A stretch of 64,000 nt of DNA. Source: Planctomycetota bacterium (GTDB taxonomy: Bacteria > Planctomycetota > SZUA-567 > H5-PLA8). Numbering within the stretch: the first letter of the stretch is position 1; each line of letters opens with the position of its first letter. Under the pieces are notes generated by a model. That model saw only the letters and a list, made by a program, of their open reading frames with translations. It did not search any database and was not told the DNA's origin. Where the stretch lies: NCBI GenBank assembly GCA_038227875.1, contig JBBRPR010000010.1, positions 96,001 through 160,000 on the forward strand, in the 5' to 3' direction. A program made the translations under genes and the position numbers. This document shows, in pieces, positions 11,081-30,098 of this stretch.

Positions 11081-13095
11081 CCTGGCTTACCCCGTCGCTG
11101 CTCTGGTTCGCGCTGCTGGGCGCGGTACCGATTCTGCTTCACTTTCTGTTGCGGGAGCGCGTGCAGAAAGTCGCATTCAGCGCGATGCGTTTTTTGCGCA
11201 AGCAGAGCCGCGAGGTGCTGTCGCGCAAGAAGTGGCTGGAATGGCTGCTGACGATATTGCGCGTCGCGTGCATCATGCTGCTGGTCGCTGCGTTTGCGCG
11301 TCCGTTCTTCGCGAGCGGAATCGATGCTGCCGGAAAATTCGGCTCCGACACCTACATTCTGCTGGACACCTCGCGCTCGATGACCTTCGGCACGCGTTTC
11401 GCCGATGCCCAGGCGCAAGCCGAGCAGCTCGCCAAGGCAGCTGCGGGCGATTCGCGCATCACTGTCGTCACGTTCGGCGGTGCCGAACAAATTCACTTCA
11501 GCGAACCGGGGGATGCTACGGCCGCTGTCGACGCGATTCATCATGCCGCAGCGACAGCTGGCTCGACGGACGTCTTCGCGGCGATCGACAAAGTGCTGGA
11601 GACCGTGAAACAGCACAATGGCAGCGGCGAAGTTCATCTGATCTCCGATCTCCAGGCGTCGGGACTTCCGCGCAATCGCGATGTCCGGAAGCTACCGCCC
11701 TCCTACAAATTCGTAGTTCACGCCATCGCGGGAAAACTGCCCGAAGCCGGCGGCGTGGCTATAGAAGGTGGCGCGTTCTCCGCTGATGTCACCCCCGGGG
11801 AACAGAATTTCAGTGTTGCCGCGCGCGTTCACAACCGTGGCCCGGCGCGCGAAGTTGAGGCCCAGCTGAAAATCGCCGGCAAGAGTATCGCCACCAAACG
11901 CATTCAACTGGCCGCCAACGGAGAGACCGCGCTAACGCTCGGCGGCACGCTGCGCGACGTTGGCGAACATCCCGGTCAAGTTGTGATTACCGGCGCGCCT
12001 GTGATTCTGCCAGGCGACGACGCGTACAATTTTATCGTTCGCGTGGTGAAGAAAGTGAAAGTCGTTGTCGTCAACGGCCATCCCAGCAAGAACGAAAAGG
12101 ACGACGCCGCCTATTACATTCTCGCCGCGTTGAACGCCGGCGACGACAGCCCGTACAGCGCCAAGGCCTACGAAACGCTCCCCGACCTGAAAGACGTCAA
12201 CGTGGTCATTCTCTCCGCGCTCTCGACGTTGCCTCCGGCGGATGTGAAGCGCCTGGAAGAGTTCGTGAAGTCTGGCGGAGGAATGATGATCAGCGCCGGC
12301 CCCGGCGTCAACGCGGCATCGTTTGACGCGAGCATCGGCACGATCTCGCCCGCGAAATTGCGCGCGTGGACGGCCGGCGACGATCTGTTCCTGATGCCTG
12401 CCAACGCGCATCACTCCTTGGTCACGCGGATCGTTTCCGAAGGCGGCGGCGATCTTACGGCCGGACGTTTCAACGGATACTGGGACCTGAAAGATTCGCA
12501 GGAAGCTGATGTCGTCCTGCGCTTCAGCAACAATCGTCCCGCGCTGCTGCAAGGTCACCTCGGCAATGGCACCACGATTTTCTTTCCCGCCGCGATGGAT
12601 ATGCGCGCCGGCGATTTTCCCCTGCACGGCATTTTCGTGCCCTTCATTCGCGAGGCCGTACGAATTCTGCAGGACCACGGCACGAAAGCCGCCAGCGTCC
12701 TCGCTGGGGAATCCTATCAACTCGGCGCCGATGGCAGCATCGAAGGCCCGGACGGGAAAATTCAGCGCAGCGAGAAGTCTGCCGTGGCCGTGACACTCAG
12801 TGCGCCGGGCATCTATAAGGTGACGCAGTCGAACACCACCGAACTCCTGGCCGTGAATGGCGACGTGAAGGAATCCGACCTCACGCCCGCGTCTGCTTCC
12901 GATCTCGAGAAGATGATTGCCTCCGCGCCAGAAACTGAAGTTCGCCGCACGGCCGAAGGTTTCGAACGCGTGCTTAGCGGCGACGCGCGGGTGGGGGCGG
13001 AGCACAAACAGAATATCGGCTGGTACTGTCTGCTCACCGTCGCGGCGTTGTGTCTGACGGAACTTTACGTGGCCCAGCTTGCATCGAGGAAATAA
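11077..13095 (+). CDS. BatA N-terminal domain + vWA membrane protein
   Basis: PILLHFL...FSAMRFL...LVAAFARP BatA motif, MIDAS DTSRS, LISD, C-terminal TM; ATGA-coupled to DUF58. Confidence 0.9.
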   Translation: MTWLTPSLLWFALLGAVPILLHFLLRERVQKVAFSAMRFLRKQSREVLSRKKWLEWLLTILRVACIMLLVAAFARPFFASGIDAAGKFGSDTYILLDTSRSMTFGTRFADAQAQAEQLAKAAAGDSRITVVTFGGAEQIHFSEPGDATAAVDAIHHAAATAGSTDVFAAIDKVLETVKQHNGSGEVHLISDLQASGLPRNRDVRKLPPSYKFVVHAIAGKLPEAGGVAIEGGAFSADVTPGEQNFSVAARVHNRGPAREVEAQLKIAGKSIATKRIQLAANGETALTLGGTLRDVGEHPGQVVITGAPVILPGDDAYNFIVRVVKKVKVVVVNGHPSKNEKDDAAYYILAALNAGDDSPYSAKAYETLPDLKDVNVVILSALSTLPPADVKRLEEFVKSGGGMMISAGPGVNAASFDASIGTISPAKLRAWTAGDDLFLMPANAHHSLVTRIVSEGGGDLTAGRFNGYWDLKDSQEADVVLRFSNNRPALLQGHLGNGTTIFFPAAMDMRAGDFPLHGIFVPFIREAVRILQDHGTKAASVLAGESYQLGADGSIEGPDGKIQRSEKSAVAVTLSAPGIYKVTQSNTTELLAVNGDVKESDLTPASASDLEKMIASAPETEVRRTAEGFERVLSGDARVGAEHKQNIGWYCLLTVAALCLTELYVAQLASRK

Positions 13096-16103: not shown

Positions 16104-16155
16104 CCCTCTACCGAAGTTGAACTCGAATCTTCGAGCTTCGACGCGGGAGTTGTGG

Positions 16156-16782
16156 ATGGCGATGGCAGCGGCCCTGGCAGACGGTCAGCAGATTTCGCAC
16201 TTCCGGTGTGAGCCGGATGCAACCGGCGCGAACGTCACGGCCGAATCGATCGAATCCTTGCGCGCAGGCGATGCCGGCTGCTGGGAGCGCCTGCTGATCC
16301 GCATGGAACGCCGCGCGCTGGCGCTGTCATGGCGGATTCTCAACGACGCGCATCTTGCCGCGGACGCGGTCCAGAACGCGTTCGTCAAAGCGTACACGCG
16401 CCGCTCTGCGCTCCATGCTGGCAGCGACGTGGAGCGCTGGCTGCTGGCGATCGTCGCCAACGCGGCCCGGGATATGGCCCGCCAGAACGCGCGCGCACAC
16501 GGACGAATTCAAGGCAACGCCGAAGAGTTGGCTCAGCGTGCGGAGCATGCCGCGCCGGAAGTCTGCGAGAGCGAAATGGAGCAGCGCTTGCGCGTGGCGT
16601 TATCGAAACTCGATGAGGAGTCGCGCGTGCTTTTTCTGCTCGTCCATCAGGAAGGCTTTTCGTACGAGGCCGTCGCGAAAGAACTGGGGTGGCCGCTGGG
16701 TACGGTGCGGTCGACGCTGCATCGGGCGCGGTTGAGGTTGCGTGAATTACTCAGAAATAGACGCGGGGAGTCCGGATCATGA
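16156..16782 (+). CDS. ECF RNA polymerase sigma factor
   Basis: AADAVQNAFVKAY, WLLAIVANAARD, region 4 GFSYEAVAKELGWPLGTVRSTLHRAR; start uncertain (TTG 16117 or ATG 16156). Confidence 0.9.
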   Translation: MAMAAALADGQQISHFRCEPDATGANVTAESIESLRAGDAGCWERLLIRMERRALALSWRILNDAHLAADAVQNAFVKAYTRRSALHAGSDVERWLLAIVANAARDMARQNARAHGRIQGNAEELAQRAEHAAPEVCESEMEQRLRVALSKLDEESRVLFLLVHQEGFSYEAVAKELGWPLGTVRSTLHRARLRLRELLRNRRGESGS

Positions 16783-17627
16783 ACTGCGATTCAGCGCAAA
16801 TCCTGATTCAAGCGCGGCTCGACCGCGAGCTGGATGTCGAGCGCGCCATCGAGTTGGGGGGGCACCTGGCGCTCTGCCCGGAATGCCGCGACTTGTCTGC
16901 GGATCTAGAACAGTGTTGTGTCTCGGCCGGAGTGCTTCCTGAGTTTCGCACCGGCAGTGTGGTGAGCGCAGCGGCGTTGAATCGGATACGCAATGCAGAC
17001 CAACTGCCGAGGCGGAATTGGAGACCGCAGTGGGCCGCTCTGGCGGCAGGTATCGCGATGATCCTGGGATTCGGCGGCTATTTTCGTCTTCGAAGCCCTT
17101 CTCTAACCGAATATCCGAAAGCCGCCGCGCCCGACCGGGTTGTTGTTCCGAAAATTCCTCCACCACATTCAATTCCAGTCGCGCCTGCACCCGCGCCCGA
17201 GGTGGAAATGAATCAGGATCCGATGCAGGCACTTCTGGTGGAGCACTACTGGAGCGAACACCGCCGCCCGGAAGGCGAACGCGCGCGCGAACGCCGCCGT
17301 GCCGAACTGCTTCGCGACTTGCGCAATCCAGACAAAGCCGGCGACGCTGCAGAGGAATTGCTGGATGACGCCGACAACGCCACAGTCTGGGCCGTGGCCG
17401 CGAGCGTGTCGGACACCTCCAGTGGAGCGGAGGTGTTCGCCGCTGCCGCGAAACTCAAGCCCGACCTGCGGCTGGTGCCGGTCTACATTGCCGCTCTCGA
17501 CGCTTCGAAAACACGCGCGCGCGCCACCGAGCTGCTGTGCAGCGCATCGGGAAAAAAGTTTGGATCTCAAAAGGAAATTTGGCTGACGTGGTGGGCCGGA
17601 GCCCGTTCTCAACTCCGCGATGATTAA
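16779..17627 (+). CDS. Zinc-binding (zf-HC2) transmembrane anti-sigma factor with HEAT-like C-terminus
   Basis: ATGA overlap with the sigma gene; HLALCPEC; one TM; C-terminal GKKFG...WLTWW motif. Confidence 0.85.
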   Translation: MNCDSAQILIQARLDRELDVERAIELGGHLALCPECRDLSADLEQCCVSAGVLPEFRTGSVVSAAALNRIRNADQLPRRNWRPQWAALAAGIAMILGFGGYFRLRSPSLTEYPKAAAPDRVVVPKIPPPHSIPVAPAPAPEVEMNQDPMQALLVEHYWSEHRRPEGERARERRRAELLRDLRNPDKAGDAAEELLDDADNATVWAVAASVSDTSSGAEVFAAAAKLKPDLRLVPVYIAALDASKTRARATELLCSASGKKFGSQKEIWLTWWAGARSQLRDD

Positions 17628-17664
17628 ATTTTCATGCTTTCGGATTCTTTCAGGAGCAGGCGAC

Positions 17665-18672
17665 ATGCGAAAACTATGGATGGTGATGCTGCTGTGTGGT
17701 GTGGTCTCTGGCGCGTCGGCCCCAGCGGAGGAGGCCAAGCCCGGACTCGCCGTTGAACTGCAGATTTACGATGTCGCGGACATTATCAAGCAGCCCACGG
17801 ATTTTCCGGCGTCAAGGCTGTATCCCGGCAACTCCGATTCGTCCATTGTGTCGCCTTTTGTTGACATTACGCCCGCGCCGTCGTTTCAGGCCGCGGATAT
17901 TGTTTCATTGCTGCACGACCGCGTATTTGCCGCCGAATTCGCCGATCCAAGGACCAGTATTGCCGAAAGTGGCGGCTGCCTGGTGGTGATGCAGACGCCC
18001 GCGATCCAGAAGAAGGTGACCAGTTACATTTCGAAGCTGCGCGGAATCATGAAACCGCAAGTGATCATCAAGGGAAAGTTGATGAGTGCAGCGGATATTC
18101 CTGCAGGAACGATCTTCGATGCCGCGGCGTTCTCAAAATTGAACGCGACGGTAAAGCCGGAGAGCATTCTCGCGTCAACCCGGCTGTTGAGTTACAACGG
18201 CCAACTGGTCCATACTCAGAGCGGACGGCTGTACAGCTACATCCGTGATTACGATGTCGCCGGAAGCGTCTACGACCCGGTGATTGGCCATGGACTGGAA
18301 GGCTATGTTTTTGAAACCCGCTCGACGCTCAGCAGCGATCGCAACAGTGCCGATGTCAATCTCCGCTTCACCTTCACTGCACCCAGCGGAAAGCCGGAGA
18401 CGCGCAACATCGTGCTGGCACCGCCGGTAACCTCGGTCACGGCCGCGGGAGAGAAAGCGCCGGACGCCGCCGCGGCTGCCCAGACGGTCACGCTCCCGAT
18501 AGACGTACCATCCATCGATGTCCAGGAAATCAGCACCACGCTGCGCGTGCCCCTGGGCAAATGGATGCTGGCTGGCGTGATGAACAACCCCGTCCCCAAT
18601 GCGGCAGAGAAACGCGTGCTGCTGTTTATCAGCATCGAACTGGCCGGAACTAACGCTCCCGCTGCCAAGTAG
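17665..18672 (+). CDS. Compact secretin-like secreted protein 1
   Basis: Signal peptide; IYDVADII..PTDFP, SIAESGGCLVVMQTP N-domain; YIRDYDV...DPVIG..LEGYVFE secretin-like segment. Confidence 0.6.
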   Translation: MRKLWMVMLLCGVVSGASAPAEEAKPGLAVELQIYDVADIIKQPTDFPASRLYPGNSDSSIVSPFVDITPAPSFQAADIVSLLHDRVFAAEFADPRTSIAESGGCLVVMQTPAIQKKVTSYISKLRGIMKPQVIIKGKLMSAADIPAGTIFDAAAFSKLNATVKPESILASTRLLSYNGQLVHTQSGRLYSYIRDYDVAGSVYDPVIGHGLEGYVFETRSTLSSDRNSADVNLRFTFTAPSGKPETRNIVLAPPVTSVTAAGEKAPDAAAAAQTVTLPIDVPSIDVQEISTTLRVPLGKWMLAGVMNNPVPNAAEKRVLLFISIELAGTNAPAAK

Positions 18673-18722: not shown

Positions 18723-19805
18723 ATGCGTACACGATGTATGACAGTTCTGATGGTCGTGGGTTGCCTGGCATCCTGTGCCTTTGGCGCCGACGATCCGCCC
18801 AAGATCGACGTCGAAATGAAAATCTACGACGTCCATAGCCTCGTAAACCCGGTTGTGGATTATCCCGGTCCGGATTTGAATTTAGGCGCGTCTCCTGTCT
18901 CTGCCGCCCCCACGGCACCGATGGGCAACGGGGTGAGTCCCAAGGTAACGGTCGTTCCCACGGTCGCGAATATTGTAGACATGCTCAAATCCCGAGTGCG
19001 ACCGGAATCATGGGATCCAGCGCTCGGGACCAGTGTCGAGGAGATGAGCGGCTATCTCGTGATCATGCAGCGGCCCGAAGTTCATGCATTGATTACTCAA
19101 CTGCTCGCCGCGTTTAGCAACACGTCGCAAAGGCAGGTGGTGGTCAAGTCACTGCTCATTCCCGCGGCCACAATTCCCGACGAGACGTTCTTCGACGACG
19201 CTGAACTGAACAAGGCATTCGATGGCAACGCGGCCGCGGCTGCTGTTGCCGCGCCGCGCATATCCTGCTTCAACAAGCAGCGCGTTTACGTGCTGAGCGG
19301 AACTATGGTCTCTGTCGTTCGCGACCTGGACGTCAACGGCGATAGTTACGATCCCGTCGTGACGTCGCAGGTCGATGGCTTTGTTCTCGATGTGCGCCCC
19401 ACGGTTTCCTACGACAGCAGCGTGACGGAACTGGAGCTACGCGCCTCGTTTAACACCAATTTGAAGCGCAATCCCCGGACGCTGGGGACCCCCGCTTCCA
19501 GCGCACTGCGCTCCGTGGCGGCGCTGGCGCAGGAAGAGTCGAGTAGCACCACGACAAAAAAAGAGAACGGCCATGACGAAGTCACTGCCAGCAGCCGCCG
19601 CCCCGCTGGCCAGATCCTGAACGCGCAGTACCTGGTCGGAATCGACATGGATTTTCCCTCCGTCGACAGCGGCAATGTTCGCACGGAACTTTCGATCCCC
19701 ACGGGGAAATGGGTGCTCGCCGCGACGCTGAACAACCCCGACGCAAAATCTCCCAAGAAGAACATGTTGCTCTTCGTGAGTTCCGAAACGATCGACACGA
19801 AGTGA
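18723..19805 (+). CDS. Compact secretin-like secreted protein 2 (tandem paralog)
   Basis: Signal peptide; IYDVHSLV..VVDYPGP, SVEEMSGYLVIMQRPEVH; PRISCFNKQR...DPVV...GFVLDVRPTVSYD; aligns with 17665-18672 by eye. Confidence 0.6.
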   Translation: MRTRCMTVLMVVGCLASCAFGADDPPKIDVEMKIYDVHSLVNPVVDYPGPDLNLGASPVSAAPTAPMGNGVSPKVTVVPTVANIVDMLKSRVRPESWDPALGTSVEEMSGYLVIMQRPEVHALITQLLAAFSNTSQRQVVVKSLLIPAATIPDETFFDDAELNKAFDGNAAAAAVAAPRISCFNKQRVYVLSGTMVSVVRDLDVNGDSYDPVVTSQVDGFVLDVRPTVSYDSSVTELELRASFNTNLKRNPRTLGTPASSALRSVAALAQEESSSTTTKKENGHDEVTASSRRPAGQILNAQYLVGIDMDFPSVDSGNVRTELSIPTGKWVLAATLNNPDAKSPKKNMLLFVSSETIDTK

Positions 19806-20007: not shown

Positions 20008-20033
20008 TGTAACCTCGCCTGTTCCCAAGCGTC
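20008..20033 (+). promoter_or_regulatory. Putative ECF-type promoter upstream of the second ECF sigma gene
   Basis: TGTAAC-N16-CGTC about 20 bp before the ATG. Confidence 0.5.
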
Positions 20034-20053
20034 TCACGTGGGTGCGAACAGGC

Positions 20054-20680
20054 ATGGCTGAAAAAGCGATACCCATCGGCGCCGGAGCTGCAATGAGCTC
20101 CGCTGCCGCGGACGTCTCCGATGCGGAGCTGCTGCGCCGCGTCGCTGCGTCCGATCACCTCCCGGCACGGACCAGGGCGCTGGAACTGCTCTTCGAACGG
20201 CACTCCGAACCGCTGCTCCGCTTTCTCACCCGTACCCTGCGCCACGAACACACCGCCGAAGACATCCTTCACGACGTGTTTGTGCGCGTCGCGGAAGCGG
20301 CGCCGACGTTCCGGGGAGAAAGCACTGTGCGCACGTGGCTCTTCACTCTGGCCTTGAACAAAGTCCGCAGCGGCAAACGCCGCGACGCCGTCGAAAACCG
20401 CGCCACCGAAATGATGGTGGCGTCCCGGCCGGCGCAACACACCGATCACAAGCACGATCCGTTCGAGCAGGCGCAGCAGCGCGAATTGCGCCAGCGCGTC
20501 GACGTGGCCATCGGCGAACTAGGCGCAGACGAACGCGAAACCTTTCTGCTCTACTGGTTCGGCGGCATGAACTACGCCGAAATCAGCGCCGCCAGCAACA
20601 TCACCGTTTCCGCGGCCAAGGTGCGCGTCCATCGCGCGCTGCTGCGTTTGAACAAACTTCTGGGCGAGGCCACGGCGTGA
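20054..20680 (+). CDS. ECF RNA polymerase sigma factor
   Basis: AEDILHDVFVRV, FRGESTVRTWLFTLALN, GMNYAEI...AAKVRVHRA. Confidence 0.9.
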   Translation: MAEKAIPIGAGAAMSSAAADVSDAELLRRVAASDHLPARTRALELLFERHSEPLLRFLTRTLRHEHTAEDILHDVFVRVAEAAPTFRGESTVRTWLFTLALNKVRSGKRRDAVENRATEMMVASRPAQHTDHKHDPFEQAQQRELRQRVDVAIGELGADERETFLLYWFGGMNYAEISAASNITVSAAKVRVHRALLRLNKLLGEATA

Positions 20681-20729: not shown

Positions 20730-23700
20730 ATGAACCAGACCTGCGAACACATTGAAGAGCAAATTCCCGATGCGCTCAGCGGCCGCTTGAATGGCGCCGC
20801 GCTGGCCGAACTGGAAGCGCACTGCGAAATCTGTGCGGATTGCCGGGCACTCTACGGTTCATTCGAACAGACCACGCAACTGTTGGAACGCGCGTTTCCC
20901 GTCTCGGGCGGCCATCGTCCTGAACTGTGGGATCGGATCGAATCCAGCGTGAGCGCCAAGTCGGCGCGCATGGCCGCGCCACGCGTGATTCCGGCGTGGG
21001 GCCCGATCGCTGCCGCCGCCGCGATGGTTGCGCTCGCTGTTCTGCTCTTTGCCGGAAGCCCGGCGCGCCGCACCGAAAACGTTGCGAGCGTGACTGTGCC
21101 ACCCATCACAGAAACTCCACGTGAGAAAACGTCGAAAAGCACGACGCCGACGCCCGTGGCGATCGCGCGCGGTCCTCGTGAGGTCATCGACGACACGCGC
21201 GGCCTGGCGCTCTTGCGGACGACCGGCCCGGTCTTTACGTTCGACGCGGAGCACCAGGCGTGGCGTCAGGTCGTCTCCGGTGAGCGAATCGCTTATGGCG
21301 CCGCGCTCCGCACCGCGCCCGGCGCACTGGCGGAACTGGCCTTCGGCGAAAGCCGGGTGCGCGTCGATGAAAAGTCGGAAGTCACGGTCTCCAACGCGAC
21401 GGTATCCGCCGCGCGGGTGGCTGAATTGACGCACGGCCGTGTGCGCGTCGATCTGCTCCATTCCGAACGCCCCTTTCAGATCCGCTCCGGCGGCGGCATG
21501 GTGGAACTCACCGGTACCGTCGTCGACGTGGACGCGCCGGCCACCGATCTCGCTTTCGTGCAGGTCCTCGAAGGCCACGTCCGCGTCACGCCCGCCGCGA
21601 ACACAGCCGACGTTGCGCCCGTATCCGTCGTAGCTGGGCAGGAAGCGTTGGTCGCGTCGCGCATCAACGCTGCGCTGCTGAAGTCTCTCCCTGCCGACGT
21701 GCAAGCGCGCTTGAGCGCCTTCAAATCGTCGCAGGCCCTCGGCCGCGATGCAGCCGCGAACTGGACGGATTCGCTCGATCATCCGCCGTCGCCGAAAAAT
21801 TCCGCGATCGGACAACTGATCGTCAAAGACGAACACGGCCGCGAAGCCGAACCACTGCGCATCGTCAGCATGGATGTGAAAACGCAGGTTCGCGGTCCAG
21901 AATCGATCACCCGTATCGACCAGAGCTTCTACAACTCCACCAACGGTACGTTGGAAGGCACGTTCTATTTCAACGTGCCGCCCGGAGCCGCGATCTCGCG
22001 CTTTGCGATGTACGTCGACGAAAAAAATCTGATCGAGGGTGAAGTTGTCGAACGTGGCCGGGCCCGCGCCATCTACGAATCGATCCTGCACGCCAAGCGC
22101 GATCCCGCGCTGCTGGAATGGGTCGACGGCAACACCTTCAAAGCGCGCGTCTTCCCGATCCAGGCGCGCAGCAACAAGCGTATCATCATGGAATACACGC
22201 AGGTGCTGCCTGCGTTCTTCGACACGCGACGTTACGTTTTTCCGCTCGTCAGCGATCTGGCGCAGAAAGCCGAAATCGGAAAACTGAGCATCCAGGTTCA
22301 ACTCGCCACCGGCGACAGCTCGAGCTTCAGCGAAATCGCGTCGCCGTCCTACTCAAGCGACCTGCGCATCCAAGGCGATGGTGAAGCCTTCGCCACTGCG
22401 TCGCTCCATCTGGAGCACGCCCGCCCGGCGGCCGACTTTGTCCTCAATTTCTCCGCGCCGCGCGCGTCGGAACTCTACGCGTCGGCATATGCGCAGAACG
22501 GCGAGCAGCCCTACCTTCTATTGGGCTACCAGCCGCGCCTTCCGGCCACCTACAAGCGCGCCGCGAATGCCGCGGGCCGCGACATTCTCTTCGTCGTGGA
22601 AACCTCCGGCGCGCGCACGCCGCAGGACCTGAGCGCCCAGCGCCAGGCGCTCACCGCGATGCTCGCCGCGCTGAACGATAACGATCGCGTCGCATTCGCC
22701 GCCGCCGACATCGGACTCGTGCCGCTCACGACACGTTTTCTCCCCGCGCGCGCCGCGGAAGTCGATGCCGCTCTCGCCGCGCTCAAGCAGCGTGTGGCGA
22801 TGGGCGCGCTCGATCTCTCGGCGAGCATTCGCGCCGCCGCTACCAGCTTCGATACATCAGCCCCAACTCGCGAGCGCCTGATGCTCTTCATCGGCTCCGG
22901 CGTGCCCGCGCTGGGCGAACTCGACAGCGGCAAAATCGCAGCGGAAGGTGCGGAAGCTCTGGCCAAAGCGAAAGCGTCGTTCGTCGCCGTCTCGCTCGGC
23001 CAATCGGTCGATGCGCTGACGCTCTCGGAAGTCGCGCGCCGCAGCAATGGTTTCTATCTGCCGCTGAAAGCCGACGAAGGCCTCGACGCCGCCGCCTTCC
23101 AACTGGCGCTCGGTCTGCAAACGCCGCTGCTCACGTCGCCGGAATTCAAAGCCGACGCCAACTGCACCGCCGAAATCTATCCCGCGAACCTCGGCGCGTT
23201 GCTGCCCGGCCAGGAGATCTTCCTCAACACGCGCGCCGCCAAAACCGGCGCTTCAGTGCTTCGCTTCACGCTGAGCGCCGAACTTCAGAAGCAGCCGTTC
23301 ACGTCCAACTTCGTGGTCGCGCTCCCGTCCGACCTCAGCGCCGACCCCGCCGCCGGCCGTTTCTGGGCGCGCGCGCGTCTGGATCATCTCCTCGCGCAGC
23401 CGCAAAGCGACGAATTGCGCAACGAAGTCATCGAACTGGCCAAAACCTGGACGCTGATGAGCCCGTACACATCATTCCTGGTGCTCGAATCCAACGAGGA
23501 ATACAAACGCTACGACATCGACCGCAGCAAACGCCGCCCGGCCTGGCGGGATCTGGAAGCTCCGACAGTGGCTCAGAATCCGGGCCAGTCGCTCATCGGT
23601 GTGCTCACCCGCGTCAAAGGCAGCAGGAGCGGGGTCGCCTACGAGAAGTCTGCGAATGCCTATGTAATTCGCGATCCTGCTGCGGAATCCACCGGCTTGC

Positions 23701-26700
23701 TGCAAGAAGGATTGAAGTTCTTCAACGAACTCGAATACGAGTCGGCGAAGCCGGCTCTCGAGCGCGCCGTTCTTCTGGATCCGACCAACGAAGTTGCAAA
23801 GCAGAAACTGCAGACTGTGAACTCGTTGCTCGCAATCCATGTAGACAAAATCGGGCGCAAGATTCGCGAATTGGAACAGGGGGAGCGCGTCAGGCAGTCG
23901 GAGTCGCTGGTCCAACTTGCCAACGCGTTTCAAGATGGCCGGAGTCAAGAAGAACTGGGCTCAAAGCCCGCGCAAGAAACGACCGGCGCGAACAAGGAAC
24001 AGATTCTTGCCGACCAGCTCGACCATTTGCGAAAGGCACAGGACAAGTTCCGCCGCGTCACAGAAATCCTGAACTGGTTGCCGCCGTCGTTCGACCTGCC
24101 GTCTGAACGTGCGTCAGTCGAAGATTCCTTGAAGCGCACTAAACAGAAAATCGCTGAGAAGGAAGACGAGATCATTTACCTGCGACGCGTCGCTGCGCAA
24201 AAAGAGGCCGACGAAAACCGCGTGCGGGAGACGGAATTGTTCAAGGCGCGCATTGCCAAACTGACCGAGCAGGTCAAGGATCGCTACTATCGCGGCGACT
24301 ACAAAGCAGCCGAGCGGCTGTCGACGCGGATTCTCCAGATAGATCCGTTCAACACGGACGCTGAAGGCTGGAAGTTGAAAGCGCAGGGAGCGGGGATGTC
24401 GCTCAACGGAAGAAACGCTTCAGAGCATCCTGATGAATACGTGGACGCGGATATCGACAAAGCGACCATTGGGTTTGCGCCAATCATTCTCTACCCATCT
24501 AACTGGGACCAGATTACACGGCGTGTGGACGATTTGACAAAAGTATCGCGCGGCAGCTTGGCTGAGAAAGCAAGTATCGGCAAAGAGTATCAAGGATTGG
24601 ATGCCCGAGTCTTATTCGGCGACTTTGGAGATATTAAGAATTTGCCACGCGTCGATCTGGGAACGACACGCGGCGAAGTCATTGATCCCTTCAAAGCTCC
24701 ACTGAGATGGGACCTTCAATCGCAAGCCGACGCGCACCGCGAAGCCGGGAAGCGCCTGTTCGATTCCTTCAAGCTCGCGGATACCAATCTCGAGAGTTCA
24801 GATTCTCGAAAATCCAAACAAGAGCAGAGTGAATTCGATCAATTGAAGCGCGAAATTGAAGATTTACGAAAGCGGCTAAAGACTGCGGGAACAAACCCGC
24901 GAATCACCTATGTGGATAGCGTGTTGGATAGCAAATATGGTCCCAATACTTCTGTAACCACGAAGAACGGCGATCTGAAAATCGGTGGGCTGACTCAGGC
25001 CTGGCATGGGAAAGAGTCAGATCCAGAGACCGCGGCTCGCATCCATGGTGTGGATTCGGAAACTGGCGAGTCGAATGCCGAGCAACGGGCTCGCATGCGC
25101 GAATACGAGAAGCAGAAATTCAGCACGGTAGAAAAGGCAGCAGAGGACCTAACAAAAGCGCAGCAAGACGATGAGTTGAAGAGCTATAAAGTTCTTAACG
25201 GTCGGCTCGATGTCCACTCGGAAGAGGTCGCTGAAGTCCGGGACAATGACACGGAAACAACCGGCCGCAAAGAGGTCGCCATCGCCGCGAAGGACAATAC
25301 CATCCGCCAGCAGGAATCACTGCTCGCTCAGGAGAAAGCGGAGAAGGAGACACTCGCCGAACAGAACAAGGCGTTGGCTGAACAGAATCTCCAACTCGCT
25401 GAAAAGAACGCCAGGATCGCCCAAGAGCAGGCTGCGGAAACGATGGCGCTGGGTCAGAAAATTGCGGAACAGGACAGTTTACTTCATGACTTGGGAACGC
25501 TGTACTCGCGCGGCGCGATGACGGATACGAAGCACGACGCGTTGGAGAAGATGCCGGAATCGGCAACGAAAACGCCAGCGCTTTCTCCGGAACTTGAGAT
25601 CTACGATGTCCGCGATTTGACAAATACCATTGCCGACTTCCCAGGACCGGAATTGAAGCTGGAGAAGAAAGAGGCCGCTCCGCCGACGCCTCCAACGGAA
25701 ACGGCGACACCGCCAAAGAGAGACATTGCGGATCTGATGGCAAAATTGATCGACAAGGGTGTGCCCAATACGTCGATTGCAGAGAACAACGGGCAACTCG
25801 TGGTCATGGCCGACCCCGTGTCCCAGGCGAAGGTGGCGAAGGCGTTGAAGGAAATGCGCGAGCCCAACAACTCCAATATCTTCGAAACGATAAATGATCA
25901 GTTGAAGACTGCTCGCAATACCGCAAAAAGCGGGGGATTCGGACCCGTGAGTTCGCCGCAGCCGAAAATCTGCGCGATCTGTAATCAGCCTTTGTTCAAG
26001 CACGCCGATCCGAATTTTGTCTGTCAGCCAAACGCGGACCGTAGCGACCAGCGAGCAAACCAGGAGTTGCGTCTCAAGTTCAACGCCGAACGGGATGCTC
26101 ATCAGGAGGCTCTCGCAAAACTCGCGACTGCGGAGCACGAAAATGGCAAGCTGCTGGCTGAAGACCAGGAATACATCAAGAAAAGTACGCAAGAATTGAA
26201 CGACCACACGTCGGTATTGAGTTCGCCGGTGCTCTTCCAGGGATTGACCAAGGAGCTGCTACGTACCACGCCAACCGACCCGCAGGTCCGCGCGCGAAAC
26301 GAGAAGTCGGAACTCGAATATGAATTGGCGATCACCAACCAGACGCTCAGCGCGCTGGAAAAGGATAAGCGCAGCGTTGAAGAAGACCTGGCACTTCAAA
26401 CCAGCCGAATTGAGCGGCTGCTAAAATCAGGTGTTCCAATCGCTCGGCTTCTGGGAGAAGATTCGGCGTCCGATGGGCCAGCCACAGCCTCGGCACCGAA
26501 AACCCCTCCAGCAAGCGCGCCTGGCGATGTTCTTCCAGGCTTCTTTAGCCGCGCGGAGATTCCGTTGGATCTGCCGCAAACCTCCCAGCGAATCGAAGTC
26601 ACGAAAGTGGTCCCGTCGCCGGTGCCGGAACATCCCGCGTCGCATGAACAACCCTACCGGGCAACCTTCGGTCCGATCAGTAACGATTCGGCCGACATCG

Positions 26701-28430
26701 CGAAGCTCAAAGATGAAGTGAACGCCGCCAAGCAGAAGCTCGCGCAGCAGAATCGGGACAAGCATGCCATCGAAGAAGATCTCGCCCTGCAAACCAGCCG
26801 CATTGAAAGGCTGATGAAGAACGGCGTGCCGATCGCGCATCTTGTTGGGGAAGATCCAACCGCGACGCAACCGTTCGTCGCCGATGGCCAAGTGCTGGGC
26901 GTTCGTCCTGAGATTAGACTTGTGATGCTGTCCATAGGTTCGCAACAGGGCGTCAAGCCTGGCTTCCAGTACACCATTAAGCGCGGTGACCAATACGTCA
27001 CACGAGTAATTGTCGAAAAGGTGTATCCAGATATGTCGTCGGCCCGCTATGTCGAAGGTCTTATGAATAAAGAAGGCCGTGAGGTCGAAGTGAACGACGA
27101 AGTCATCACGCGTGGCGGGAGCGCACCCGTCTCCGACGACAAACCCCTCGCGCCGAAAACCGCACCCGTCAATCTCTCCCGCGACCAAATCGCCGCACTG
27201 CTTGCCACCATGCCCAAAAATTCCGATGTCGCCGCCGCGCGTGCGGAACTTTACCGCAAGCTTGCGGCGCTCAGCACTGGGCTTGACGCCTGCCGCGTCC
27301 TCGCGCAAGGCCTCGCGGAATTCCAGGGTGAAGGGACGCAGGCCGAACAGCTCGCGGGCGATGTCGTTGTGCTCGTCGACAGTGAATCCAGCGCGGCGGT
27401 GCTCGACGCGATGCTGCCGCTGCTCAGCGATGAAAATCTGCGAGCGCGGGTGCTCGCTCGGCGCGGCGCGGTGGAACCGGACTTGAACAAGCGCTGTGAA
27501 TTTCTGGCGTCGGCGTTCGAAGCGTCCGGAAAAGAAGTGTCGTACCTTCACCCGCTGGCGGTGGCGCTGAATACCGGAGGGCGTCACGCTCAAGTCATTG
27601 CGCGGCTGGAAGCGAGTCTGCGTTCCGGCGGCGCGCAGAATTGGATGTGGCCGCTGCTCACCGTGTCGTACCGCGCGATCGGCGATGCGGCCGGCGCACT
27701 GCGCGCGGGCTCGCAGCTTGTCGCGCAGCATCCGCGGGAAGCGGCGCCGCGCATGGAATTCGCACGGGCGCTGGATGGCCTGGGCCGGGGTGCCGATGCG
27801 ATCCGCGAAATGCGCGCAGCCTGCACGTTTGCGCCGGAGAACGTCGACGCGGTGCGCGCGCTGCGCGACCTTTCTAAAAAGTACGACGATGCGGAAACGC
27901 GCGCGTGGGCGCTGCTGGCGCTGCTCCGCAACGACTGGGGCAACGACAGCCAGCCGATCTGGGCCGACACGCGCAAGGAACTGGACGCGCTGAAAGCCGA
28001 TTTTCTCAAAGCCGGAATGAAGGACAAGGCCGCGGATCTCGCCAGCCGAGCCCGCGAAGCGGACGTCACCGACATCGTCGCGGTGATGAGCTGGAACACG
28101 GACAAGACCGACATTGATCTGCACGTGGAAGAGCCCGGCCAGCAGCGCGTCAGCTACAATTCACGCTCGACGTTCCGCGGCGGCAACCTCGATCACGACA
28201 ACACCTCCGGCTACGGCCCGGAGACGTACACGCTGCGCCACGCGCCGGCCGGGCGGTACATCATCAAGGTCCACTACTATTCCGGCCAACCACCGACCGA
28301 CGTGACGATCAACGTCACGCGCCGCAAGGGCGGAGCAGAAGAGACGACGCAGACGTTCCACGTTCACCTTGAGAAGGCGCATGACGAGCAGATTGTGGAG
28401 ACGATCGATATTCCGAACGGAACGGAATGA
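20730..28430 (+). CDS. Giant anti-sigma protein: zf-HC2 - TM - FecR-like - VIT - vWA - mosaic centre - TPR - DUF2135/YfaP-like
   Basis: HCEICADC; TM; FecR-like LTHGRVRVD...VQVLEGHV; VIT LEGTFYFNVPPGAAISRFAM...RDPALLEW...FKARVFPI; vWA (ETSGA, degenerate MIDAS); MSPYTSFLVLE; C-terminal WNTDKTDIDLHVEEP...DNTSGYGPETY. Confidence 0.85.
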   Translation: MNQTCEHIEEQIPDALSGRLNGAALAELEAHCEICADCRALYGSFEQTTQLLERAFPVSGGHRPELWDRIESSVSAKSARMAAPRVIPAWGPIAAAAAMVALAVLLFAGSPARRTENVASVTVPPITETPREKTSKSTTPTPVAIARGPREVIDDTRGLALLRTTGPVFTFDAEHQAWRQVVSGERIAYGAALRTAPGALAELAFGESRVRVDEKSEVTVSNATVSAARVAELTHGRVRVDLLHSERPFQIRSGGGMVELTGTVVDVDAPATDLAFVQVLEGHVRVTPAANTADVAPVSVVAGQEALVASRINAALLKSLPADVQARLSAFKSSQALGRDAAANWTDSLDHPPSPKNSAIGQLIVKDEHGREAEPLRIVSMDVKTQVRGPESITRIDQSFYNSTNGTLEGTFYFNVPPGAAISRFAMYVDEKNLIEGEVVERGRARAIYESILHAKRDPALLEWVDGNTFKARVFPIQARSNKRIIMEYTQVLPAFFDTRRYVFPLVSDLAQKAEIGKLSIQVQLATGDSSSFSEIASPSYSSDLRIQGDGEAFATASLHLEHARPAADFVLNFSAPRASELYASAYAQNGEQPYLLLGYQPRLPATYKRAANAAGRDILFVVETSGARTPQDLSAQRQALTAMLAALNDNDRVAFAAADIGLVPLTTRFLPARAAEVDAALAALKQRVAMGALDLSASIRAAATSFDTSAPTRERLMLFIGSGVPALGELDSGKIAAEGAEALAKAKASFVAVSLGQSVDALTLSEVARRSNGFYLPLKADEGLDAAAFQLALGLQTPLLTSPEFKADANCTAEIYPANLGALLPGQEIFLNTRAAKTGASVLRFTLSAELQKQPFTSNFVVALPSDLSADPAAGRFWARARLDHLLAQPQSDELRNEVIELAKTWTLMSPYTSFLVLESNEEYKRYDIDRSKRRPAWRDLEAPTVAQNPGQSLIGVLTRVKGSRSGVAYEKSANAYVIRDPAAESTGLLQEGLKFFNELEYESAKPALERAVLLDPTNEVAKQKLQTVNSLLAIHVDKIGRKIRELEQGERVRQSESLVQLANAFQDGRSQEELGSKPAQETTGANKEQILADQLDHLRKAQDKFRRVTEILNWLPPSFDLPSERASVEDSLKRTKQKIAEKEDEIIYLRRVAAQKEADENRVRETELFKARIAKLTEQVKDRYYRGDYKAAERLSTRILQIDPFNTDAEGWKLKAQGAGMSLNGRNASEHPDEYVDADIDKATIGFAPIILYPSNWDQITRRVDDLTKVSRGSLAEKASIGKEYQGLDARVLFGDFGDIKNLPRVDLGTTRGEVIDPFKAPLRWDLQSQADAHREAGKRLFDSFKLADTNLESSDSRKSKQEQSEFDQLKREIEDLRKRLKTAGTNPRITYVDSVLDSKYGPNTSVTTKNGDLKIGGLTQAWHGKESDPETAARIHGVDSETGESNAEQRARMREYEKQKFSTVEKAAEDLTKAQQDDELKSYKVLNGRLDVHSEEVAEVRDNDTETTGRKEVAIAAKDNTIRQQESLLAQEKAEKETLAEQNKALAEQNLQLAEKNARIAQEQAAETMALGQKIAEQDSLLHDLGTLYSRGAMTDTKHDALEKMPESATKTPALSPELEIYDVRDLTNTIADFPGPELKLEKKEAAPPTPPTETATPPKRDIADLMAKLIDKGVPNTSIAENNGQLVVMADPVSQAKVAKALKEMREPNNSNIFETINDQLKTARNTAKSGGFGPVSSPQPKICAICNQPLFKHADPNFVCQPNADRSDQRANQELRLKFNAERDAHQEALAKLATAEHENGKLLAEDQEYIKKSTQELNDHTSVLSSPVLFQGLTKELLRTTPTDPQVRARNEKSELEYELAITNQTLSALEKDKRSVEEDLALQTSRIERLLKSGVPIARLLGEDSASDGPATASAPKTPPASAPGDVLPGFFSRAEIPLDLPQTSQRIEVTKVVPSPVPEHPASHEQPYRATFGPISNDSADIAKLKDEVNAAKQKLAQQNRDKHAIEEDLALQTSRIERLMKNGVPIAHLVGEDPTATQPFVADGQVLGVRPEIRLVMLSIGSQQGVKPGFQYTIKRGDQYVTRVIVEKVYPDMSSARYVEGLMNKEGREVEVNDEVITRGGSAPVSDDKPLAPKTAPVNLSRDQIAALLATMPKNSDVAAARAELYRKLAALSTGLDACRVLAQGLAEFQGEGTQAEQLAGDVVVLVDSESSAAVLDAMLPLLSDENLRARVLARRGAVEPDLNKRCEFLASAFEASGKEVSYLHPLAVALNTGGRHAQVIARLEASLRSGGAQNWMWPLLTVSYRAIGDAAGALRAGSQLVAQHPREAAPRMEFARALDGLGRGADAIREMRAACTFAPENVDAVRALRDLSKKYDDAETRAWALLALLRNDWGNDSQPIWADTRKELDALKADFLKAGMKDKAADLASRAREADVTDIVAVMSWNTDKTDIDLHVEEPGQQRVSYNSRSTFRGGNLDHDNTSGYGPETYTLRHAPAGRYIIKVHYYSGQPPTDVTINVTRRKGGAEETTQTFHVHLEKAHDEQIVETIDIPNGTE

Positions 28431-28523: not shown

Positions 28524-30098
28524 ATGCGCTGTTCCCTCGTGCGGTTCGGTGTCTATTTGGTTTTTGCGGCAAGCCCTTTCGTGGCCTATGCCAGCTCGAT
28601 TGATGACCTGCGGCAGGAAGTCGAGCGCCTCAAAAAAGAAGTCGCGGTCCACGCCGCTCCCGAAATCCCCATTGAACAAAAATATCCCGGCTCCGTCGAC
28701 GCCTGTTCATCCGCTGTTGCGGTGCGCAGCCGTGCGACATTGACCGTCGGCGGCTTGCTGCAGGTCTGGTATCAATCGGTTCAGAACGATCGGCGCGGCA
28801 TCGTCTTCAATTCGCCGGTCAGCGATCTCAGCGGCGAATCGAACCAGACCAACGACAACGATACCTTCCGTATTCGCCGCGCGGAACTGCGCTTCGTCGC
28901 CGATGTCGACGAGCATTTCAGCGCTCACGTCACGCTGGATCCAGCGCGTGAAAGTTCGGCCTCGTTTTACCCGCTGCCCACGTTCATGAATCACAACCGG
29001 CTGCTGTCGCCGGCGCTTCCCAACACCACGCTTGGCGGTGTACCCGTCGCCGCGGGCACACGCACGACGCTCAGCGCCAACCAGATCACGCCTTTATTAT
29101 TGGAAGACGCGTACATCAGCATTCACGATTGGCTGCCGCACCATGAAGTTCTGCTCGGACAGATGAAGCCGCCGTCGGGCGCGGAAGCGTGGACGGACAA
29201 TGGCGACCTCGATTTTGTCGAACGCTCACTGATCGCGCAGGCGTCGGACATCCGCGACATCGGCGTGATGGTCCACGGCACGTGGTTCTGCGAACGACTG
29301 CAGTACTGGGTCGGGGCGTTCAACGGGCCGGACGGCACGACACTGGCCGATACCGAGAACGTCACCGGTGCCAATCGCGCTGACGACAACAACGACAAGG
29401 ATTTTGCGTGGCGTGTTCTGGCCCGGCCGGTGTGGAATGCCGATGCGTGGTCCGGCCGCCTGGAAGTCGGCTACGCGCGCACCGATGGCTACCGCGGCAG
29501 CAGCGGCCAGGCCTTCGATGCGTCGACGCCGCTCAACGCGTTGAACGAGCAGCGTACCGCCATCAACCGGCAGAACGCCTGGTTGACGTACCGTCCCGGC
29601 GGAGTGCTGCGCGGCGTCTGGGCGCGCGGCGAATGGGAATCGCAGCATGCACGTTTTAGCGCGTTCCGCGGCCGCACGAATCTGCTCGGCACGGGTTCCG
29701 ACGCCGCGAGCATTGATGGGACAACGGTGATCTTCGGGCAGCTGAACCCCGCGCCGGTGACCGCGTCCGGCTGGAGCGCTTCGGCCGGCTACCGCCTCTC
29801 GGAATCCCGCTTCGCCGCTTGTTCGTGCGATTCCTCGGGTCTGCGCCAGGCGCTGAACAATTTGGAGTTCGCCTTCCGCGCCGAACAGTATGAAAACGTC
29901 GCCGCCGAAAGTTTCGTGAATCCCGATCGCGCCACGAATCTCTACCGCACGCGCGTCTACACCGGCGGCGTGAATTACTACATGAGCGCCGCGAGCAAAC
30001 TGCAGTTGAACTACGGTATCGTCAAAGACCCCCGCAGCGGAGCCCTCCGCGACGTCCGCAACAATTTCCTCGCGCTGAATTTCCAGGTGGGGTTTTGA
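28524..30098 (+). CDS. Outer-membrane porin (OprO/OprP-like)
   Basis: Signal peptide, short coiled coil, FRIRRAELRF, GQMKPP..E...LDFVERS, RDIGVMVHG, terminal NFQVGF. Confidence 0.8.
   Translation: MRCSLVRFGVYLVFAASPFVAYASSIDDLRQEVERLKKEVAVHAAPEIPIEQKYPGSVDACSSAVAVRSRATLTVGGLLQVWYQSVQNDRRGIVFNSPVSDLSGESNQTNDNDTFRIRRAELRFVADVDEHFSAHVTLDPARESSASFYPLPTFMNHNRLLSPALPNTTLGGVPVAAGTRTTLSANQITPLLLEDAYISIHDWLPHHEVLLGQMKPPSGAEAWTDNGDLDFVERSLIAQASDIRDIGVMVHGTWFCERLQYWVGAFNGPDGTTLADTENVTGANRADDNNDKDFAWRVLARPVWNADAWSGRLEVGYARTDGYRGSSGQAFDASTPLNALNEQRTAINRQNAWLTYRPGGVLRGVWARGEWESQHARFSAFRGRTNLLGTGSDAASIDGTTVIFGQLNPAPVTASGWSASAGYRLSESRFAACSCDSSGLRQALNNLEFAFRAEQYENVAAESFVNPDRATNLYRTRVYTGGVNYYMSAASKLQLNYGIVKDPRSGALRDVRNNFLALNFQVGF

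Follow-up and report, generated by a model that had tools for sequence, protein, structure and literature searches.

We found that the center of a giant anti-sigma-type gene in a Planctomycetota bacterium (GCA_038227875.1) is indeed a patchwork of pieces that find their best relatives in other genes of that genome. The gene (P0001; 20715..28430, plus strand) lies in the window that we analyzed, a 64,000-nucleotide (nt) stretch of contig JBBRPR010000010.1 (positions 96,001 to 160,000), and consists of a single open frame encoding 2,571 amino acids (aa) from a TTG codon; the database copy of the protein (P0003) starts at M6 and has 2,566 aa. The pieces are partial domains of the lineage's own envelope proteins, that is, of secretins, porins, an OmpA-family lipoprotein and two other exported or membrane-anchored proteins. 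Related bacteria have rebuilt the center from their own versions, which suggests a sensor that watches the envelope by imitating it. An earlier note, made from the letters of this DNA, had proposed a giant extracytoplasmic function (ECF) anti-sigma factor with a low-GC mosaic center of envelope-protein fragments that serves as a bait for a protease, a phage protein or a misassembled partner. The anti-sigma-type protein and the mosaic are borne out below, while the bait is not favored by what we found.

The frame that encloses the center resembles that of an anti-sigma factor. The open reading frame (ORF) is co-oriented with, and begins 34 nt after the end of, an ECF sigma factor gene (P0002, 212 aa; 20042..20680, on the plus strand, as are all window features for which coordinates are given in this form) that was recognized by both Pfam (Sigma70_r2, 47.1 bits; Sigma70_r4_2, 42.9 bits) and NCBIfam (sigma70-ECF, 93.8 bits), and this sigma/anti-sigma pairing is kept at five orthologous loci. 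The N-terminal zf-HC2 anti-sigma domain, the mark of ZAS-type (class I) ECF anti-sigma factors (aa 10-44; 20742..20846), scores 17.9 bits against a Pfam cut-off of 22.2, compared to 30.6 (P0008) and 21.2 bits in orthologs; its motif H36-x3-C40-x2-C43 (HxxxCxxC) is present, and H36, C40 and C43 are invariant across six orthologs. There follow a hydrophobic stretch, read by eye from the translation and presumed to be a single membrane helix (aa 95-113; 20997..21053), a FecR domain (PF04773, 38.4 bits; aa 198-290; 21306..21584), and a VIT domain (aa 384-494, 81 bits) with a vWA domain (aa 623-781; VWA_3, 56.8 bits), which together occupy 21864..23057. The canonical metal ion-dependent adhesion site (MIDAS) motif of vWA domains is DxSxS; the giant protein reads E629-T-S631-G-A instead, and E629, T630, S631 and G632 are invariant across the six orthologs. 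A partial NCBIfam match to the "marine proteobacterial sortase target" equivalog was ruled out as an assignment, with 146.8 bits against a cut-off of 551.65.

On the far side of the center, we found a tetratricopeptide repeat (TPR)-like region (aa 2257-2395; 27483..27899; NCBIfam MamA-like, E = 3.7e-4), which is also matched in orthologs, and a C-terminal DUF2135-like domain (aa 2510-2551; 28242..28367), which is below the cut-off here (Pfam, 14 bits) but passes it in orthologs (23.1-25.9 bits), with strongly conserved columns. Thus, the vWA module and the TPR/DUF2135 tail between which the earlier note placed the mosaic are both present. Pfam detected no FecR_C or STN domain after the FecR domain of P0001 (E ≤ 0.1), where VIT-vWA stands instead, and no secretin pore domain (PF00263) anywhere in the protein; STN-like modules are confined to the center (piece D below, and Pfam STN matches in ortholog centers). 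Relatives of the giant protein, judged from their database names, are Planctomycetota. From these domains we read the protein, with about even confidence, as a membrane-anchored ECF anti-sigma factor of the FecR (cell-surface-signaling) kind, and, with equal reserve, we read its periplasmic part as a conserved frame, FecR-VIT-vWA at one end and TPR-DUF2135 at the other, around a middle that would be replaceable.

Neither Pfam nor NCBIfam matched any domain family in aa ~950-2140 of the protein, which make up a center of 1,190 aa. We searched its own genome with the whole protein by tblastn (34 matches) and by blastp against 53,153 stop-to-stop ORFs, with Pfam applied to the matched ORFs, and also with 60-aa segments of it (step 30, n = 84; blastp against the same ORFs, E < 1e-3, self removed). 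Own-genome matches were obtained for 34 of 40 segments of the center (36-97% identity), compared to 8 of 31 in the N flank, where they are VIT/vWA paralogs and one zf-HC2, and 1 of 13 in the C flank. Full-length donor genes thus exist, as the proposed mosaic predicted, and each of the stitched elements that had been named has an own-genome relative in its place.

The pieces are laid out as follows. The center opens with a short secretin-N-like fragment (aa 955-990; 23577..23684) that is 61% identical over 31 aa to residues 291-321 of a 678-aa GspD-like secretin, within the Secretin_N match of that protein (256-342). Piece A (aa 991-1310; 23685..24644) comes from a TPR-secretin (C18:105273-108329): aa 991-1278, which end in NWDQITRR, correspond to residues 195-482 in the TPR region (68-69% aa, 66% nt identity), and aa 1287-1310 to residues 712-735 (79%), so that the N0/N1 domains were skipped. 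Piece B (aa 1364-1431; 24804..25007) is the mature N terminus of a porin, comprising coiled coil, linker and first beta-strand, and is 41-60% identical to the N-terminal parts of at least seven own ORFs, five of them confirmed as Porin_O_P. Piece C (aa 1513-1603; 25251..25523) is the coiled-coil stalk of an OmpA-family lipoprotein (P0010; 77% aa, 72% nt identity), beginning directly after the lipobox cysteine and running to just before the OmpA domain. Piece D (aa 1626-1716; 25590..25862) is a secretin N-domain-like module, 37-42% identical to the N-domains of three own secretins and 31-35% to two ORFs upstream of the sigma gene. Piece E (aa 1716-1780; 25860..26054), the CxxC..H..C region, matches residues 46-111 of an exported DUF2225/TPR protein (C21) with a signal-peptide-like N terminus (62% over 65 aa). 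The last two pieces come from one protein, P0009, of 291 aa, which is membrane-anchored and made of a membrane helix, one long helix and a small beta-domain. Piece F (aa 1771-1943; 26025..26543) is coiled coil corresponding to P0009 residues 72-249 (51-59%), and piece G (aa 1996-2133; 26700..27113) is a second copy, corresponding to residues 161-298 of the P0009 ORF and containing the C-terminal coiled coil and the small beta-barrel (83% aa identity overall). Between the pieces lie P/A-rich linkers, and 6 of the 40 center segments have no relative.

All of the donors are exported or membrane proteins, and the copied parts are solely non-barrel, periplasmic ones: pieces B, C and E begin at or near the mature N termini of their donors, and secretins contributed only N-terminal TPR and N-domain parts. 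We compared the giant protein with 165 non-overlapping ORFs of at least 1,200 aa, each searched against all ORFs (at least 50% identity over at least 50 aa, local match under 40% of the query, SEG filtering on). It ranked third by independent donor groups (three groups, four segments). In our reading, one of the two ORFs that ranked higher has a fragmented paralog, since all of its matches sit in several frames of a single contig, and the other belongs to a large repeat family that counts dozens of paralogs; no other of the 165 ORFs matches several unrelated single donors at 50% identity or more. In a search of 1.84 billion representative proteins, the center matched 550 at E ≤ 0.001; of the 150 that were listed, 11, not counting the query's own, reach 1,500 aa, and most of the others are the size of secretins (~850-1,000 aa) or of P0009 (~290 aa).

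Several observations accompanied these searches. The donor TPR-secretin stands in tandem with a second TPR-secretin (G000:C18:102340-108329, L082; G000 is the genome of the window), between genes for seryl-tRNA synthetase and deoxyhypusine synthase and two genes away from an S41 tail-specific protease, and this tandem pair recurs in G010 and G008. A zf-HC2 anti-sigma-type protein with five DUF4349 stretches (G000:C36:11731-14322, L021) has a stretch 37% identical to aa 1514-1682 of the giant protein, and several anti-sigma factors of G000 may have coiled-coil and N-domain modules in common. A 1,542-aa ORF (G000:C16:115005-119630) is 61-84% identical to pieces in G000:C100:8796-11076; these lie on several short ORFs in different frames and look like a fragmented paralog or a poorly assembled copy.

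We examined orthologs in 41 genomes of the class, including G000 and the unpublished G017 (which entered the tally only), and found a match to the giant protein at 1e-10 in 28 of them. The orthologs belong to genera g7 (G006 and G012; also G014, split in two frames), g9 (G008a), g3 (G010a) and g4 (G003, cut by a contig end). They keep the N flank to aa ~950 at 47-59% identity and the C flank from aa ~2140-2180 at 43-44%, while their centers are ~650-750 aa (G008a, G006/G012) or ~1,500 aa (G010a) long and resemble that of P0001 only in patches; in G008b, G010b, G015 and G021, which form a "b-type" set farther removed, the two flanks are present at 32-35%. Two of the centers are likewise mosaics, made of pieces of their own secretins, porins and P0009 homolog. 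Searched on its own genome, the G010a center gave 16 non-self matches, among them a pair of tandem TPR-secretins (59-72% identity) and a GspD-like secretin of 650 aa with N0 and Secretin_N (46% by tblastn, 44% by blastp). The G008a center gave 20, including 63% identity to a P0009 homolog, 45-55% to two secretins, a short match of 82% and porin N termini. By Pfam, ortholog centers carry STN, GspD_N0 and Secretin_N. Thus, the predicted pattern of conserved flanks and swapped centers held in that centers are not colinear across genera, but the mosaic is not universal, since the g7 center has no own-genome paralog.

The nearest ortholog (P0004) has flanks that are 80% and 72% identical to those of the giant protein, and its colinear pieces are 56% (A), 62% (C), 47% (F) and 58% (G) identical, each below the identity to the own-genome donor. 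Trees of the pieces placed copies from different genera with the donors of their own lineages. In a tree of 21 rows built on the last ~140 aa of the P0009 family, the sister of P0001-G is the G000 gene (support 94/86), that of the G010a piece the G010 gene (94/73; 86% identity) and that of the G008a piece the G008 gene (96/92). A second tree of 21 rows, which takes in P0004, P0005 and P0006 but not piece F, L055 (an identical row) or L059 (a near-identical one), pairs P0001-G with P0004-G as sisters (90/97) and joins both to the G000 gene and P0005-G in one clade (100/99). Similarly, in a tree of secretin TPR regions (20 rows), P0001-A is sister to its own secretin (100/99), and in the enlarged version (20 rows; L069, L077 and the very long G010a piece 1 left out) P0001-A, P0004-A and P0005-A form a clade with that secretin (100/99), whereas the G010a piece is nested among the g3 secretins (99/98), that of G008a groups with G008 (89/40) and P0006-A with G001 (88/77). 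In the tree of OmpA stalks (13 rows; orthologs whose stalk failed E 1e-3 left out), P0001-C and P0004-C are sisters (98/94), with their own stalk next (93/88).

A single clade of all six anti-sigma pieces was rejected for G (delta lnL 157, p = 1.8e-4) and for A (delta lnL 78, p = 6.7e-6) in the approximately unbiased (AU) test, p-values that call for caution, since we specified the clades to be tested only once the first trees were at hand and since several piece branches are long. Copying therefore went from the envelope genes to the anti-sigma gene, and at equivalent positions different genera carry copies that stem from donor genes of their own. In all six proteins, piece G occupies one and the same place in the alignment, beside the C flank (invariant columns 2020-2128). 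The simplest reading of these alignments and trees is therefore that, in separate lineages, the resident gene would have replaced or converted the piece; capture repeated at one site would be less economical.

Three of the related proteins showed features of a different kind. P0005, an ortholog from another metagenome, has in its center, at residues 2364-2425, a match to POTRA (23.4 bits against a cut-off of 21.3), a domain that may have been copied from a protein of the BamA type. In the b-type protein L044 (G008:C56), residues 1132-1244 weakly match SQHop_cyclase_C (24.1 bits, sub-cut-off), which hints at an alpha/alpha-toroid domain in place of envelope copies. The ortholog of G014, a near-complete genome (L041; G014:C3, 2086-8677, minus strand), is divided between two ORFs, of 1,357 and 1,101 aa, which lie in different frames with an overlap of 782 nt, the result of either a frameshift or a sequencing error.

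The copies are old. Pieces A, C and G are 68, 77 and 83% identical to their donors in aa and 66-77% in nt, with nonsynonymous divergence (dN) of 0.11-0.26 and synonymous divergence (dS) of at least 1.5 or undefined: dN is 0.26 with saturated dS for piece A, and 0.20 with a dS of 1.5 for piece C. The barrel of piece G (aa 2056-2133) is 92% identical to that of P0009 in aa and 79% in nt (dN 0.058, dS 2.1), and 36 of its 78 codons differ synonymously. Saturated synonymous sites together with a low dN mean that the copying happened long ago and that purifying selection acts strongly on copy and donor alike. At the DNA level, pieces and donors are 66-80% identical and the longest exact matches are 16-22 nt, and with no exact match longer than 22 nt there is no trace of recent conversion.

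These numbers also bear on whether the mosaic might be a chimeric metagenome assembly or a decaying pseudogene. The source genome comes as a bin (176 contigs; completeness 88%, contamination 4%), and composition shifts within the gene, as an artefact would lead one to expect. But repeats cannot have misjoined the contigs, because pieces and donors share so little exact sequence; the frame is open across 2,571 codons; and dN/dS is far under 1. A 12.5-kb Logan contig of sequencing run X1 spans 23400-27300 with no differences and no joints, which is not independent evidence, since X1 itself is possibly the source sample. Orthologs from independent assemblies run colinear with the gene across its junctions, P0004 (2,768 aa) over aa 6-1431 and 1716-2569; for P0005 and P0006, too, this holds over large stretches. 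Thus, we consider a chimeric assembly very unlikely and an artefact of either kind already close to refuted. Runs X2-X4 contain only small identical or near-identical pieces and show no more than that the organism or close kin occurs elsewhere.

The fall in GC content across the center is exactly as counted in the earlier note, 25/60 at 24901-24960 against 45/60 at 22741-22800, in a frame that stays open. GC is 0.551 over 23560-27110, whereas the flanks of the gene have 0.645 and 0.653. Both amino-acid composition and codon choice contribute to the drop: K+E+Q amount to 22.7% in the center and 13.3% in the flanks, with GC at second codon positions of 0.34-0.46 in the center, and GC at third positions (GC3) is 0.63 against 0.77/0.78, as the suggested GC3 check confirmed. 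Where codons can be aligned to the donors, the pieces have a GC3 of 0.62-0.69 and the donors one of 0.75-0.86. Across the genome (2,229 non-overlapping ORFs of 450 aa or more) the median is 0.76, with 14.7% of ORFs at or under 0.64; GC3 of 0.55 or less occurs in 3.2% of 4,365 300-codon windows, a level reached at ~24315-25065. In ortholog centers the dip is smaller (0.75 versus 0.81-0.85 in G010a, G006 and G012) or nil (G008a). We also considered horizontal origin as the cause of the low GC; it is unsupported, because the pieces group with own-genome donors.

Structure models were made for the best-preserved module and its donor. The P0009 model (predicted local distance difference test, pLDDT, 86) is a single helix of ~190 residues followed by a small beta-domain, and the barrel copy of P0001, modeled with AlphaFold2 (AF2), folds confidently alone (pLDDT 87.6, predicted TM-score 0.78). 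Its Foldseek likenesses are weak: an LPHT-ring chain (E = 1.1e-3, query TM-score 0.65), FlgT (2.1e-3, 0.67), ATPase crown domains and MreC. Thus, judged from the model, the barrel weakly resembles small barrels that build rings or oligomers. MreC was also the top Foldseek match of full-length P0009 (9.7e-4), but P0009 is not MreC, because a canonical MreC (PF04085, 81 bits) lies elsewhere in the genome. A sequence profile search of P0009 against the PDB gave coiled-coil noise only (keratin, E = 6.6e-4), and its Atlas matches are unnamed clusters only, commonest in Planctomycetota. The P0009 gene (G000:C88:1082-1957, L083) has homologs (L050-L065) in 16 related genomes, and this planctomycete family of ~290-aa proteins has a strongly conserved N-terminal membrane helix.

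Complex prediction for residues 147-291 of P0009 with aa 1990-2140 of P0001 gave "weak support" (score 0.57; best of three controls 0.00), with at least 91% of contacts agreeing between runs and partner pLDDT of at least 74. The mark for support was passed by 116 of 157 solved complexes and by 2 of 215 mismatches, and with a score of 0.60 or less it was passed by only 18 of the 157 solved complexes and by both of those mismatches. Because the piece is a close paralog of a probably self-associating protein, this pass shows a predicted likeness of interfaces, not binding.

Around the gene pair, we noted a putative regulatory signal of the sigma gene. An ECF-type promoter-like motif, GTAACC-N15-CGTCT (20009..20034), lies 7 nt upstream of the first start codon of the sigma ORF, and GTAACY-N15-C[GA]TC[TC] was seen by eye at the same place upstream of the sigma gene at 6/6 orthologous loci (including L037-L041). 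A genome-wide scan with GTAACY-N14-16-C[GA]TC[TC] located the sigma-gene copy (C10:116009) and gave 33 sites, compared to 105 in the reversed-genome control; thus the motif is not enriched, and the 27 ORFs downstream of its sites show no pattern. Downstream of the giant gene lies a Porin_O_P gene (28524..30098; Pfam, 59.4 bits) that has no tblastn match in the orthologous loci and resembles piece B weakly. Upstream are a second pair of ECF sigma (16117-16782) and zf-HC2 anti-sigma (16779-17627) genes, followed by two paralogous ORFs of ~350 aa (17620-18672 and 18723-19805; 30-31% identical, no Pfam family), both with a secretin-N-like domain related to piece D, and, 7 kb upstream, a 672-aa BatA-N + vWA protein (11077-13095). 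We detected no mobile or defence context among the 15 neighbouring ORFs scanned. PADLOC models matched none of P0001, P0009, the sigma factor, the porin and the two neighbour ORFs; P0010 is matched, through its OmpA/MotB domain only.

To explain why an anti-sigma factor might carry such copies, we favor, with moderate confidence and by analogy with known cell-surface signaling, a mechanism in which like-with-like docking of the copies to the parental envelope complexes would control the anti-sigma factor's proteolysis. The middle is built of envelope proteins of the organism itself, their periplasmic parts outside the barrels having been copied in frame, and these copies would act as docking surfaces through coiled-coil pairing, packing of N-domains and oligomerization of beta-barrels. 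The anti-sigma factor would thus sit on the parental complexes, or compete for their partners, and be shielded while docked. If the complexes were missing, misassembled or changed, its periplasmic part would be exposed to proteolysis, and intramembrane cleavage would then free the sigma factor. This would extend the logic of FoxR/FoxA and PupR/PupB from one STN pair to a panel of envelope proteins. It is also possible, though we put it forward tentatively, that a planctomycete anti-sigma family monitors the envelope by self-mimicry, its cassette being re-templated repeatedly from resident genes (secretins, porins, an OmpA-type tether and a membrane-anchored coiled-coil/barrel protein) and so staying matched to current complexes.

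Several results weigh against docking and self-mimicry. The g7 ortholog of G006 has both flanks and a 761-aa center with no own-genome paralog at 1e-4 in a nearly complete genome, and the b-type paralogs are without envelope-copy modules; self-copies are therefore unnecessary for the frame to be kept. Within P0001, P0004 and P0005, a clade of pieces only was not rejected (AU p 0.307), so that one capture before their split suffices and ongoing re-templating is unsupported there. The promoter-like motif is absent upstream of the donor genes and of the downstream porin, its sole relevant site being that of the sigma gene, so that we see no regulatory feedback to the donors. Among the 15 neighbouring ORFs scanned, none encodes a TonB-dependent transducer with an N-terminal signaling domain, and, as noted, FecR_C/STN does not follow the FecR domain. 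Moreover, much of the copied material is coiled coil or TPR and could serve as a plain spacer, and the GC3 of the center, below that of flanks and donors, could mean weaker selection there.

A spacer grown by accretion is the reading that these last points would suit: segments able to fold in the periplasm would have been gained by illegitimate recombination and kept for their length or stiffness, with no specific binding. It would account for ortholog centers that vary from ~660 to 1,500 aa, for a g7 center unrelated to any own gene, for the predominance of coiled coil and TPR, for the lower GC3, and for the P/A-rich linkers and segments without relatives. But a mere spacer would not have held 92% aa identity to the donor beta-barrel across saturated synonymous sites, nor would it explain why the same donor families (secretin, porin and the P0009 family) were reused in three genera or why, in our reading, none of the other long ORFs is a comparable multi-donor mosaic. 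We therefore consider it somewhat unlikely.

The bait of the earlier note would make the center an integrated decoy, its pieces serving as baits, such that a foreign agent attacking the envelope proteins (a protease, bacteriocin, secreted effector, or phage protein reaching the periplasm) would strike the anti-sigma factor as well and switch on the sigma factor. Indeed, the sensor carries copies of domains from other proteins of its own genome, as an integrated decoy does, and such a decoy would have the same mosaic of the same own-genome origin, with content varying among genera; piece branches are also longer than those of the donors (0.17-1.6 versus 0-0.33), as if freer to change. In contrast, the copied parts are periplasmic and not the surface loops recognized by phages and most bacteriocins, dN/dS is low rather than raised, PADLOC matched neither the protein nor its sigma factor and neighbours, and the scanned neighbourhood shows nothing of mobile elements or defence. 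Since the copies are periplasmic and under purifying selection, a self-docking or assembly sensor fits them better than a decoy for foreign attack, which we regard as improbable.

The closest known counterparts of the docking that we favor are the regulators of iron cell-surface signaling. The periplasmic domain of PupR comprises a FecR-type subdomain and an STN subdomain that is homologous to, and binds, the signaling domain of its outer-membrane partner PupB (PMC7186176), and the FoxA signaling domain binds FoxR in the absence of signal and shields it from proteolysis (PMC11637429). The giant protein shares with FecR, PupR and FoxR an N-terminal anti-sigma domain, one membrane helix, a periplasmic FecR domain and an adjoining ECF sigma gene, and the like-with-like binding described for PupR (PMC7186176) and Fox (PMC11637429) is what we propose for it. 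It differs in size (2,571 residues, compared to 324 for PupR; PMC7186176). It also differs in having VIT-vWA rather than FecR_C/STN after FecR, in lacking a TonB-dependent transducer among its scanned neighbours, and in drawing its homologous modules from several envelope proteins that differ between genera.

Other systems share single features with it. In the sigma-E pathway of RseA, DegS and RseB, the anti-sigma factor's proteolysis likewise reports the assembly state of outer-membrane proteins, the signal being the exposed C terminus of unassembled porins as read by the PDZ domain of the protease; unlike the giant protein, the anti-sigma factor there carries, to our knowledge, no copies of envelope proteins. 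RsgI proteins are Gram-positive sensors of polysaccharide whose carbohydrate-binding modules bind substrate and not the parental proteins, and we know of no lineage-specific re-derivation of them from resident genes. The RsgI anti-sigma family of Clostridium thermocellum resembles the giant protein in carrying outer sensor modules of the same kinds as occur in the regulated proteins (PMC10328401, PMC12203970). ECF289-type anti-sigma factors, in which DUF3520 is fused to a von Willebrand domain, share an extracytoplasmic vWA, and the passage describing them mentions no VIT, TPR/DUF2135 tail or mosaic center (PMC7826278); Pfam found no DUF3520 in the giant protein. In searches of the open-access literature, judged from the titles and abstract openings listed, we found no described anti-sigma factor with a sensor arm of resident envelope-protein copies, and no work pairing "integrated decoy" with "anti-sigma" or "anti-sigma" with "inter-alpha-trypsin".

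An analogy in design is found in plant NLR integrated decoys, in which a sensor carries a copy of a domain of another host protein that is the target of pathogen effectors. The copy of a self domain is shared, while kingdom and signaling chemistry differ and the giant protein is under purifying selection. If self-mimicry proves true, the family would be a bacterial counterpart of these decoys, one that senses the state of the envelope machines of the cell itself instead of a single ligand. In the usual view, an anti-sigma factor has one sensor domain for one signal; the sensor arm of the giant protein is instead a panel of copies of envelope proteins, traceable to the genes of each lineage. 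Should the copies dock to the proteins from which they derive, a single regulator could report on several envelope machines simultaneously, the like-with-like STN pairing of iron cell-surface signaling would be extended to a general design principle, and testable partners would be predicted for the widespread Planctomycetota family of membrane helix, coiled coil and small barrel and for a poorly understood outer envelope. The conserved flanks around a center rebuilt from resident genes also provide a clear natural example of modular sensor evolution by intragenomic capture or conversion.

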